Source: an uncultured Deinococcales bacterium
GTDB lineage: Bacteria; Deinococcota; Deinococci; Deinococcales; JAAFIG01
Reading direction: 5' to 3'
Assembly (NCBI GenBank): GCA_964244895.1
Contig: CAXTKV010000154.1
Span: 1-13,159 of the forward strand
Length of the DNA: 13,159 bases
Positions 3,864 to 7,439 of this stretch are shown in pieces. The translations under genes were made by a program, and so were the position numbers. Position 1 is the first letter of the stretch; every line of letters starts with the position of its first letter. A model generated the notes under the pieces. It saw only the letters and a program-made list of their open reading frames with translations. It did no database searches and was not told the DNA's origin.

Positions 3864-4133
3864 ATGTACAGATGCCAGATTTGCAACACCATCGTTTCCG
3901 CCAACACGCCCGCCAACCGCGTCGTGCTCGAGTCTCGAGCGAGGCAGTACCCGAAAAGAAAAGATGTGTTCCTCAAGCCGGATCCCAACAAGAAAGGGTC
4001 AAGACGAAAGCCAAAGAAGCCCGAGTACACCGATGATCCCGGCGGCGTGGGTTTTGAAACCGTGCGCGAGGTGATCGCGTGTGCTGCGTGTACTGCGGTG
4101 GCTCGAGGCGCTCAAACAACTCGAACTGGCTGA
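3864..4133 (+). CDS. Small basic putative zinc-ribbon protein
   Basis: 89 aa with N-terminal CQIC and C-terminal CAAC flanking a K/R-rich segment; fills the gap between genes and is followed by a hairpin. Confidence 0.75.
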   Translation: MYRCQICNTIVSANTPANRVVLESRARQYPKRKDVFLKPDPNKKGSRRKPKKPEYTDDPGGVGFETVREVIACAACTAVARGAQTTRTG

Positions 4134-5625: not shown

Positions 5626-5653
5626 AAAAAACCCCGGACGTGTGGTCCGGGGT
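5626..5653 (-). terminator. Intrinsic attenuator terminator upstream of aspS
   Basis: - strand ACCCCGGAC-CACAC-GTCCGGGG-TTTTTT. Confidence 0.88.
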
Positions 5654-5680
5654 GTTGGTTCAAGACCGACGCCCCGACGA

Positions 5681-5740
5681 TCAATTGTCGTCGGTGTTGC
5701 CGAGGTCGGGGCGGTTTGGGTCGTTTGGGCGCGCGAACAT
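5681..5740 (-). CDS. Asn/Asp-rich attenuation leader peptide MFARPNDPNRPDLGNTDDN
   Basis: atg ttc gcg cgc cca aac gac cca aac cgc ccc gac ctc ggc aac acc gac gac aat tga; 4 Asn + 4 Asp of 19 codons; TATACT 6 nt before ATG. Confidence 0.85.
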   Translation of the reverse strand: MFARPNDPNRPDLGNTDDN

Positions 5741-5746
5741 CTCGGG

Positions 5747-5776
5747 AGTATACGCGGGGCGTTTCGGGCCGGTCAA
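5747..5776 (-). promoter_or_regulatory. aspS leader promoter (leaderless start at leader peptide ATG)
   Basis: - strand TTGACC (5776-5771), 18-nt spacer, TATACT (5752-5747), CCCGAG, ATG. Confidence 0.8.
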
Positions 5777-5865
5777 GGCGAGGGCGCGTCTGAGCGCGTT
5801 CCGTCAGCAACGGGGTTCTCGAGATCGAAAGAACATCGTCTGGGACGGTGTTCCTGGTGGGTCTG

Positions 5866-5922: not shown

Positions 5923-6378
5923 ATGAGCGGATCAGAAATCGGGGCGATCTTCAACCGCAACCTGGACAGGCTAGAGCGGAACCTGGATGGGCTCGATGGA
6001 ACGGATTTTCTGGTGCGCGTCTCCGAGGACGGCTCGCACCTGAACTGGTTGCTCGGGCACGTGCTGCACGCCAGGGTCTGCCTGATCCGCGACCTGGGCG
6101 GCTTCGCGCACCCGGACGAAAGGCTGCTCGAGACGGCCTACGCGAAGGGCACGCGCGCCTCGAACGCCGAAACCTTCCCGACCCGAATTCTGCGCGATGC
6201 GCTCAGAGACAACCAGACCGCGCTCGAGGAGACGCTTTCCGCGACCGACCTGACCCAATCCGGCCCGCGTTCGGGCACGCTGGAGGATCGGGCGGCGTTG
6301 ATGGCCTGGCACGAGACGTACCACGTCGGGCAATCCGGCGTGCTGAGACGGCTGGCGGGCAAACCGGGCGCAATCTAA
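5923..6378 (+). CDS. DinB/YfiT family protein
   Basis: 151 aa helical protein with HLNWLLGHV and WHETYHVGQ metal-binding motifs. Confidence 0.88.
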   Translation: MSGSEIGAIFNRNLDRLERNLDGLDGTDFLVRVSEDGSHLNWLLGHVLHARVCLIRDLGGFAHPDERLLETAYAKGTRASNAETFPTRILRDALRDNQTALEETLSATDLTQSGPRSGTLEDRAALMAWHETYHVGQSGVLRRLAGKPGAI

Positions 6379-6402
6379 GTTCCACGATTTCTGGAGGTAC
6401 GT

Positions 6403-6870
6403 ATGAACAAATTGATCGCTCAAAAAAATACCTTGATCGACCTGACGCACAACCTGCGCACCGAAATCCTGAACGCGATATCGGACGCGGATCTGGACAA
6501 GACGCTCGGCGGCGCGACCCTGAGCTTGCGCGCGCTGCTGCTCGAGCAGGCGGGGTTTCAACGCGCGTACACGGAATTGTTCAGAACCTTCGCGCTGAAA
6601 TTCGAGCCGCCGGTTCCGGATCAAACCATCGCGCTCGAGGCGATCAAAACAATGTTCAGCGCGCTGGATGCCGACATGATCGCGGCGCTCGGGGCGTTAT
6701 CGAACGAAGACCTGGCGCAAAAAGTGGATCGGAGCAACTACAAGATTCCGCTCGAGGTGACGTTTTACACCTACCGCGAATCCGTATTCATCTTCGCGGC
6801 CAAAGCCAGCGTGTACTTGCGCGCTCTGGGATACGCCTTGCCTCCGCAGGTCGCCGGTTTTATCGCGTGA
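6403..6870 (+). CDS. DinB-like helical protein lacking His ligands
   Basis: 155 aa, SD GGAGG; DinB-like layout (ISDADLDKTLGG..SLRALL, LSNEDL, YLRALG..P) without the His triad. Confidence 0.75.
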   Translation: MNKLIAQKNTLIDLTHNLRTEILNAISDADLDKTLGGATLSLRALLLEQAGFQRAYTELFRTFALKFEPPVPDQTIALEAIKTMFSALDADMIAALGALSNEDLAQKVDRSNYKIPLEVTFYTYRESVFIFAAKASVYLRALGYALPPQVAGFIA

Positions 6871-6923
6871 AGACCGTCCAGGACGGTCTTCTTTGATCTC
6901 GAGAAAACGCGTCCTGGACGGTC
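6869..6923. repeat. REP-like palindromic intergenic repeat
   Basis: gaagaccgtcc-a-ggacggtcttc followed by tttgatctcgagaaaacgcgtcctggacggtct; near-identical inverted copy at about 9427-9481. Confidence 0.85.
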
Positions 6924-6938
6924 TACGGAAGGAACGAC

Positions 6939-7439
6939 ATGACACCGAACACGCAGGAAGCCACGAAACTCGCCTGGGCATCCAATCAGAGCGTCAACGA
7001 CGTGCTTCTGGATCACCTGACCGATCCCGAAATGATGAGGGCAAAAACGCCCGGTGGTGGCTACACGGTCGCGCAGCACCTGGCGCACATGGTCGAGGTG
7101 CTGGTGAGCTGGACAAGCCAGTTCGAGCCTTCTGTCCTGAGCTTGCCCGAGCTGTACTCGGATTGGAATGAGGCTGCCCCGCAGGATTTCACCGCAGAGA
7201 CGGATGTGGACCGCGTGCGCGACGTGATGGCGCAGGCGCACCGGGCGGCCTGGGCAGCAGCGCAGGCCGCGACTTCGACCGGAAGCCTGCCGCACGCCAG
7301 CATCCCGCAGTACCTGATCCACATGATGATCCACGACGCGCACCACCGGGGCCAGATCGTGCTGGCGCTCAAGACGAACGGCTTCCCGCTGCCGGACGAC
7401 GGCGCGCTCTGGGCTCCGCTGCGCGACGCGCGACCCTGA
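6939..7439 (+). CDS. DinB/YfiT family protein
   Basis: 166 aa with TVAQHLAHM and IHDAHHRGQ motifs; SD AAGGA. Confidence 0.9.
   Translation: MTPNTQEATKLAWASNQSVNDVLLDHLTDPEMMRAKTPGGGYTVAQHLAHMVEVLVSWTSQFEPSVLSLPELYSDWNEAAPQDFTAETDVDRVRDVMAQAHRAAWAAAQAATSTGSLPHASIPQYLIHMMIHDAHHRGQIVLALKTNGFPLPDDGALWAPLRDARP

Follow-up and report, generated by a model that had tools for sequence, protein, structure and literature searches.

What controls expression of aspS2, an aspartyl-tRNA synthetase gene, is the question raised by the window analysed here, i.e., the whole 13,159-nt stretch of contig CAXTKV010000154.1 from an uncultured Deinococcales bacterium. An earlier note, made from the letters alone, had proposed that a leaderless leader peptide rich in Asn and Asp codons attenuates the transcription of a non-discriminating AspRS gene. 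The results presented below favor a ribosome-controlled transcription attenuator before aspS2, a reading to which a probability of about 0.7 is assigned on the basis of sequence comparison and folding models. The features are listed in Table 1.

Table 1. Predicted elements of the aspS2 locus in the window, with the other leader-peptide candidates of the genome in the last row.
Feature	Position	Strand	Basis or remark
-35-like hexamer TTGACC	5776-5771	-	sequence; TTGAC retained in most relatives
-10-like hexamer TATACT	5752-5747	-	sequence; 18-nt spacer to TTGACC
Predicted transcription start	5740 (A of ATG)	-	6 nt past TATACT
Leaderless leader ORF 1	5740-5681	-	19 codons, 8 Asn/Asp; reads MFARPNDPNRPDLGNTDDN, then stop
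Region 1, protector strand	5713-5687	-	predicted; short form 5694-5688, long form 5713-5705
Region 2, antiterminator strand	5680-5660	-	G run 5675-5672; predicted partners region 1, 3 or 5
Terminator 1 hairpin (regions 3:4)	5653-5631	-	-17.3 kcal/mol, folding
U6 tract of terminator 1	5631-5626	-	sequence
Shine-Dalgarno-like GAGGAGG of short ORF 2	5622-5616	-	sequence
Short ORF 2	5610-5536	-	24 codons, ends Arg-Asp-stop; RNA predicted as long hairpin
Region 5 (ORF 2 end and hairpin B 5' arm)	5545-5528	-	complementary to region 2
Hairpin B plus short U tail	5533-5504	-	stem 5533-5509, about -21 kcal/mol; candidate second terminator or pause
Shine-Dalgarno-like AGGAG of aspS2	5469-5465	-	sequence
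aspS2, archaeal-type aspartate--tRNA(Asn) ligase, 424 aa	5457-4183	-	profile matches
Six further leader candidates	C107:10203 (+), C17:25651 (+), C11:15672 (-), C11:9564 (-), C30:13251 (-), C204:1132 (-)		

The aspS2 protein scores 568 bits against NF003483 (cut-off 353) and 400 bits against TIGR00458 (cut-off 368), and it falls below the bacterial aspS and asnS cut-offs while exceeding the curated aspS_nondisc cut-offs. These values agree with the enzyme type assigned in the earlier note, and the product is, as judged from its sequence, a non-discriminating-type AspRS. The genome also encodes a bacterial-type aspS1 (split across two contig ends), asnS and gatB. Neither AsnA nor AsnB was found in the genome, which is 91% complete; the sole weak Asn_synthase match was discarded, as it is a NAD synthase domain that scores far better as NAD synthase. 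According to PMC4206432, a second AspRS acts with GatCAB in D. radiodurans and T. thermophilus to make Asn on the tRNA, and charging of tRNA(Asn) with Asp was shown for the enzymes of both organisms. With aspS1, asnS and gatB present and AsnA and AsnB not found, the aspS2 product likely carries out the first step of Asn synthesis, and aspS2 plus GatCAB appears to be the sole route to Asn in this genome. Inspection by eye of the 260 nt upstream of each of aspS1, asnS and gatB revealed no evident Asn/Asp-rich leader. As for the neighborhood, an 89-aa ORF with two CxxC motifs and no NCBIfam or Pfam match lies downstream of aspS2 (3864-4133, plus strand), and three adjacent DinB-superfamily genes (5923-7439, plus strand) are divergent from it.

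All elements of the proposed promoter (TTGACC-N18-TATACT-N6-ATG, minus strand) and the 19-codon ORF were recovered, as were both protector pairings, the ten-pair antiterminator and the terminator followed by U6. The promoter (5776-5747, minus strand) is the top promoter match of the window, with 10/12 positions, and the window holds 3 such matches against 2.2 expected from shuffles. When short ORFs were drawn from the 167 promoter-like sites followed by ATG or GTG in the whole genome, 51 were obtained, and the Asn plus Asp fraction of ORF 1 (0.42) is the maximum among them (mean 0.053).

Folding of the RNA gives -11.0 kcal/mol for the short protector (5694-5688 with 5680-5674) and -19.7 kcal/mol for the long one (5713-5705 with 5678-5670). 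The antiterminator (5676-5648) has 10 pairs at -13.7 kcal/mol and overlaps the 5' arm of terminator 1. Since terminator 1 is stabler than the antiterminator, read-through would need kinetic trapping. Equilibrium folding of the free state, i.e., with no ribosome, yields antiterminator values from 0.02 to 1.00 across loci, and 0.45 in the window; as this ribosome-free model often keeps the antiterminator, the protector helix is not universal. The window presents no Rfam match at the gathering score, and six sub-threshold matches over the leader region were taken as chance. A T-box match (RF00230) is likewise absent at the aspS2 leader, in line with the suggestion that the leader is used instead of a T-box. 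The genome's two T-box-like matches are below the cut-off and lie elsewhere, preceding ORFs whose translations read as glyQS-like and valS-like.

Conservation was assessed on 159 distinct upstream regions, each with at least 200 nt of upstream DNA and a protein at least 55.5% identical to that of the window. The leader ORF was picked by promoter score alone, which yielded a candidate in 151 of the 159 loci; the eight loci with no promoter-like ORF were dropped, along with L192 and L201, where the promoter is weak and no hairpin exists. A promoter-like site, a short ORF and a hairpin thus precede 149 of the 159 Deinococcota aspS2 genes, and 10 lack the element, counts that overstate independence because the loci share ancestry. 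Every one of the 149 leaders holds Asn or Asp codons (131 both, 15 Asn only and 3 Asp only), and all present the same G-run, C-run, G-run layout. Going by their record titles, the loci with a leader come from this family, Deinococcus, Trueperaceae, Thermus, Meiothermus and other Thermaceae. The spacing from the -10 element to the ATG is 6-11 nt in all 149 (5-12 were allowed in the scan), and at least four T occur within the nine nt after the terminator hairpin in 135. The same promoter-based scan returned no Asn/Asp leaders at aspS2-like loci outside Deinococcota. At L174, L175 and L183, the element-free aspS2 genes are located directly behind another ORF.

The 14 leaders with no U tract include nine named Thermus. 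In the Thermus-type loci (L029, L031, L033, L184, L189, L196, L226, L230-L232, L236 and L276), the hairpin is very stable, at -22 to -26 kcal/mol, but lacks a U tract, and a Shine-Dalgarno sequence follows about 10 nt later; these leaders may act through a different output.

For further comparison, 80% clusters provided 36 representatives, with L023 excluded from the G-run tests. Their leaders are composed of 10.8% Asn and 13.4% Asp, against 1.7% and 4.6% in their own aspS2 genes. The frame richest in RAY is the ATG frame in all 35 testable representatives, the G run starts in phases distributed 19/6/10, the stop codon lies from -8 to +11 nt relative to the G run, and the last Asn/Asp codon lies 3-26 nt before it. 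That the RAY frame is fixed despite varying ORF length and G-run phase argues for a constraint on codons, not on RNA alone. The G run precedes the C run in 35 of the 36 representative leaders. The covarying stems anticipated across the phylum were recovered only in part: the inner stem of terminator 1 covaries strongly (35 representative loci; 0/5000 shuffles at three positions), whereas covariation of the antiterminator is weak, as outside its near-invariant G:C core one of six flanking positions clearly beats the shuffles (5/5000), the remaining ones being matched in 174-2918.

In order to relate codons to structure, each transcript was folded at equilibrium up to the terminator loop while the bases under the ribosome were held unpaired. 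The footprint is an assumed value, set to a mask of 10 nt; masks of 8 and 12 nt gave the same pattern with a shift of about one codon. In the window, the 5' arm of the terminator is captured with a probability of about 0.7-0.9 when the A site is at codons 12-18, and this value falls to about 0.3 with the A site on Asn19 or on the stop codon. Among the 36 representatives, the five final permissive codons are Asn or Asp in 50-69% of cases and the three codons behind them in 6-19%, and the stop-codon position is non-permissive in 35. In these models, the regulatory codons are therefore placed such that a stalled ribosome would free the antiterminator and a ribosome at the stop codon would block it, a statement about geometry and not about function.

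The mechanism proposed is as follows. Translation of ORF 1 would begin at the 5'-terminal base of the transcript. On reaching the stop codon, a ribosome would cover the G run and, after its release, region 1 would capture the same run, with terminator 1 forming in either situation. A ribosome held at codons 12-18 (Asp12, Asn15, Asp17, Asp18) would instead leave the G run exposed, which would then pair with the C run at the expense of the terminator, and a stall at Asn/Asp codons would thereby result in read-through into aspS2. The stalling-driven read-through of the original proposal gains support from the 149 of 159 loci in which upstream ORFs bearing Asn/Asp codons are conserved with the same layout, and the aspS2 leader is very probably a working attenuator, as far as comparison and modeling indicate.

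Which shortage is sensed is a separate matter. Since aspS2 plus GatCAB seems to offer no less than the sole way to Asn, what the leader mainly responds to in physiological terms is probably a low level of Asn-tRNA, and low Asp-tRNA would be a secondary input; as the likely first step of Asn synthesis, aspS2 would have Asn-tRNA as its natural signal. The dual sensing put forward in the earlier note is kept in this graded form, since 15 of the 149 leaders contain Asn without Asp and 3 the reverse, the Asp codons also contribute to the protector helix, and a second, bacterial-type AspRS exists. An alternative is a leader that senses Asn-tRNA only and whose Asp codons (GAC GAC/GAT) are retained because they pair, as the protector helix, with the sequence behind the stop codon. 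The 15 Asn-only leaders speak for it. A bacterial-type aspS1 is above the cut-off in 38 of 41 genomes, which implies aspS2 is not required for Asp-tRNA(Asp), the Asp codons are paired in 7-8 of the 8 family loci, and an Asp preceding another Asp is GAC in 25 of 28 cases. Nevertheless, such a leader is distinctly unlikely: the three Asp-only leaders occur in genomes that retain aspS1 and asnS, Asp codons stand in frame at the last permissive positions (window included), and a shortage of Asp-tRNA would stall the ribosome at Asp codons whatever reason kept them. The idea that Asp-only leaders are tied to genomes without aspS1 or asnS was rejected, as all three have both. Highly improbable is a leader that reports general ribosome speed or the queuosine modification of tRNAs rather than Asn/Asp supply. 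Queuosine is common to the tRNAs for Asn, Asp, His and Tyr, and U-ending codons are indeed enriched (AAT is 44/68 in leaders and 53/252 in aspS2). However, from aspS2 to leaders, His is not enriched (2.8% to 2.5%) and Tyr is depleted (3.6% to 0.3%), and the genome's other leaders carry codons matching their own downstream pathway.

Terminator 1 and aspS2 are separated by a gap of 174 nt, in which a second module (5622-5504, minus strand), absent from the earlier note, was found. It comprises ORF 2, whose product has no Pfam match, and hairpin B, which starts 2 nt after the ORF 2 stop in the window. Seven of the 14 family relatives for which upstream DNA is available carry the module (L005-L010 and L289, from genera g2, g3 and g4), and it is missing from the other seven, six of them g5 genomes and one of g3. 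The terminator is followed by at least 75 nt in 44 loci, and within that set the module is confined to the window and these seven relatives. In seven of the eight loci with the module, spanning three genera, ORF 2 has 20, 22 or 24 codons and ends in GAT TGA. In L005, a repeat unit of about 36 nt is inserted in the loop of hairpin B with the stem intact, and related units occur in tandem upstream of the promoter in L006 and L007. Hairpin B was also considered as a repeat, which was rejected given its single copy in the genome.

The freed region 2 would, according to the folding, also capture the 5' arm of hairpin B about 140 nt downstream. The resulting 2:5 helix has 17 bp and one bulge in the window, with -28.5 kcal/mol against -18.3 for the 2:3 helix. 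In the eight related sequences, 92% of the cells of the 2:5 helix pair, with three double-sided changes (10/500 shuffles), and 96% of those of hairpin B, with two (11/500 shuffles); with so few, related sequences, these figures are no more than suggestive. When the ribosome mask is applied, the 2:5 helix turns off at the same codon as the 2:3 helix in all eight loci, which follows from their shared region 2. Full-length hairpin B is, at equilibrium, the prevailing structure in most loci, also when a stalled ribosome is imposed. Pairings of CTCGAG within the ORF 2 hairpin were discounted, since it is the commonest 6-mer of the genome. A relay through the 3' arm of terminator 1, which would capture hairpin B once freed, was discarded in favor of region 2, its probability being close to 0 in seven of the eight loci, with a single state in L009 as the exception.

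It is possible, on the folding evidence, that hairpin B is a second terminator under the control of region 2. One leader peptide would then act on two serial terminators through one antiterminator strand, and this arrangement could operate as a dwell-time filter, although that is somewhat unlikely: after read-through at terminator 1, region 2 would have to stay free until some 140 nt later, and only a long stall at Asn/Asp codons would yield aspS2 mRNA. There is a nearly even chance that hairpin B does not terminate at all and is a tolerated insertion or a stem that serves in pausing, processing or mRNA stabilization. The U tail of hairpin B is weak (CTTTGG, 3 U, in the window and 3-5 U in relatives), the hairpin is not among the results of the terminator scan of the window, and half of the 14 family relatives lack the module. 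Moreover, outside its 6-bp core, the 2:5 pairing does no better than shuffles in L010 (1426/2000) and L009 (533/2000), and in most rows swapped partners do at least as well as the cognate ones. Against a non-terminating stem, the match of 14-17 bp with region 2 exceeds that of shuffled flanks in the window (3/2000) and in genus g4 (2-29/2000), i.e., it is beyond chance in two of four genera, a match as good is seen at only 47 of 4875 genomic GCCCCG sites, and RNAalifold picked the 2:5 helix in the consensus unprompted.

Hairpin B could also terminate under the control of ORF 2 translation, with aspS2 being made only when translation generally runs. Only 1-2 nt separate the ORF 2 stop from the stem, so that a ribosome trailing behind would prevent hairpin formation. 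A Shine-Dalgarno sequence, an ATG and an open frame ending in GAT TGA at the stem are found in seven of the eight loci. Control by ORF 2 translation is unlikely, however, as L009 retains hairpin B but has lost the ORF 2 frame, the ORF 2 peptide is poorly conserved, the pairing with region 2 also accounts for GATTGA, and short ORFs led by Shine-Dalgarno sequences occur without a second hairpin behind the genome's ilvB and leuA leaders.

The core aspS2 attenuator is not new, a counterpart having been proposed in D. deserti in 2014 (PMC4007540). Table S9 of de Groot et al. 2014, who reported 14 putative leaderless leader peptides in D. deserti, lists Deide_10019 before the gene for 'Aspartyl-tRNA synthetase, non-discriminating', with its start at the A of the ATG (PMC4007540). 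This answers whether an orthologous leader had been described in Deinococcus, which had been left open: as in the window, a leaderless short ORF rich in Asn/Asp directly precedes the same gene, and the entry is listed as putative only, with no structure model or functional test found there (PMC4007540). The leader of D. hohokamensis (L157) differs from Deide_10019 by one residue. In D. deserti, 117 reads fall on the leader (45 nt) and 118 on the gene (1290 nt) (PMC4007540), an excess on the leader that could partly reflect 5' library bias. Deide_10019 starts 133 nt before aspS, in comparison with 283 nt in the window, which leaves no room for a second module. A second D. deserti start is mapped at -93, behind a GATAAT motif within the Asp-Asn leader codons (PMC4007540). 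In the representative leaders, Asn after Asp is encoded by AAT in 22 of 25 cases (GAYAAT), against 17 of 32 after other residues; the GAYAAT site of the window leader is at 5689-5684 (minus strand), with no -35 match evident there. An internal bypass promoter, without the leader, inside the Asp-Asn codons of the aspS2 leader is possible. Searches of the open-access literature and preprints found no functional test of the aspS2 leader, and the open-access literature yielded no counterpart of a leader module with two terminators or a second hairpin.

The his, thr, ilv and pheST leaders are classical leader-peptide attenuators, and those of thr and ilv respond to two amino acids. In comparison with the classical systems, the window presents leaderless initiation, a tRNA-dependent biosynthetic target, and two predicted downstream partners of the antiterminator. 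It shares with the E. coli trp attenuator the regulatory codons and the protector, antiterminator and terminator with a U tract (PMC4007540). Leaders for two amino acids are also listed in D. deserti Table S9, before ilvB and asd (PMC4007540). The Salmonella mgtCBR leader (mgtM, mgtP) resembles the window in having two short ORFs and two structure modules, and there each ORF senses its own signal with additive effects (PMC3641672). In contrast, ORF 2 of the window has no run of regulatory codons, and its hairpin B is predicted to depend on the strand of ORF 1. Saad et al. reportedly described, in 2012 and 2013, a T-box that controls tRNA-dependent Asn synthesis in Clostridium acetobutylicum. 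There, as in the window, tRNA charging would control the ND-AspRS and GatCAB route, but a T-box binds the tRNA directly, and none was found at the window leader.

The genome contains six further leaderless leader-peptide candidates, whose codons match each downstream gene: Lys-Lys before homocitrate synthase, a Pro-rich leader before proS, and others before ilvB, leuA, leuS and asd. The Lys and Pro leaders are not among the 14 of D. deserti Table S9 (PMC4007540). On contig C11, the ilvB and leuA leaders are followed, past the terminator and ahead of the first enzyme gene, by Shine-Dalgarno-led ORFs of 45 and 17 codons. The hexamer CTCGAG has 21,883 copies genome-wide (54 in the window), in comparison with 426-568 for three palindromes of the same composition, and it is like a highly iterated palindrome. 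An intergenic, REP-like palindrome, ACCGTCC-NN-GACGGT, usually followed by CTCGAG, has 800 genome matches with both strands counted; its copies in the window are at 5849 (minus strand), 6873, 9464 and 11157, and one is 70 nt upstream of the aspS2 promoter.

The additions made here are the phylum-wide register analysis, the natural Asn-only and Asp-only variants, and the lineage-specific second module. The core element likely provides feedback control of tRNA-dependent asparagine synthesis throughout the Deinococcus-Thermus phylum, and the naturally occurring Asn-only, Asp-only and mixed leaders offer a set of variants suited to the question of which charged tRNA it senses. If the reading of hairpin B as a second terminator under region 2 control is true, the attenuator would gauge the duration of a stall and not merely its occurrence, and would offer a reusable design for low-leak RNA switches.
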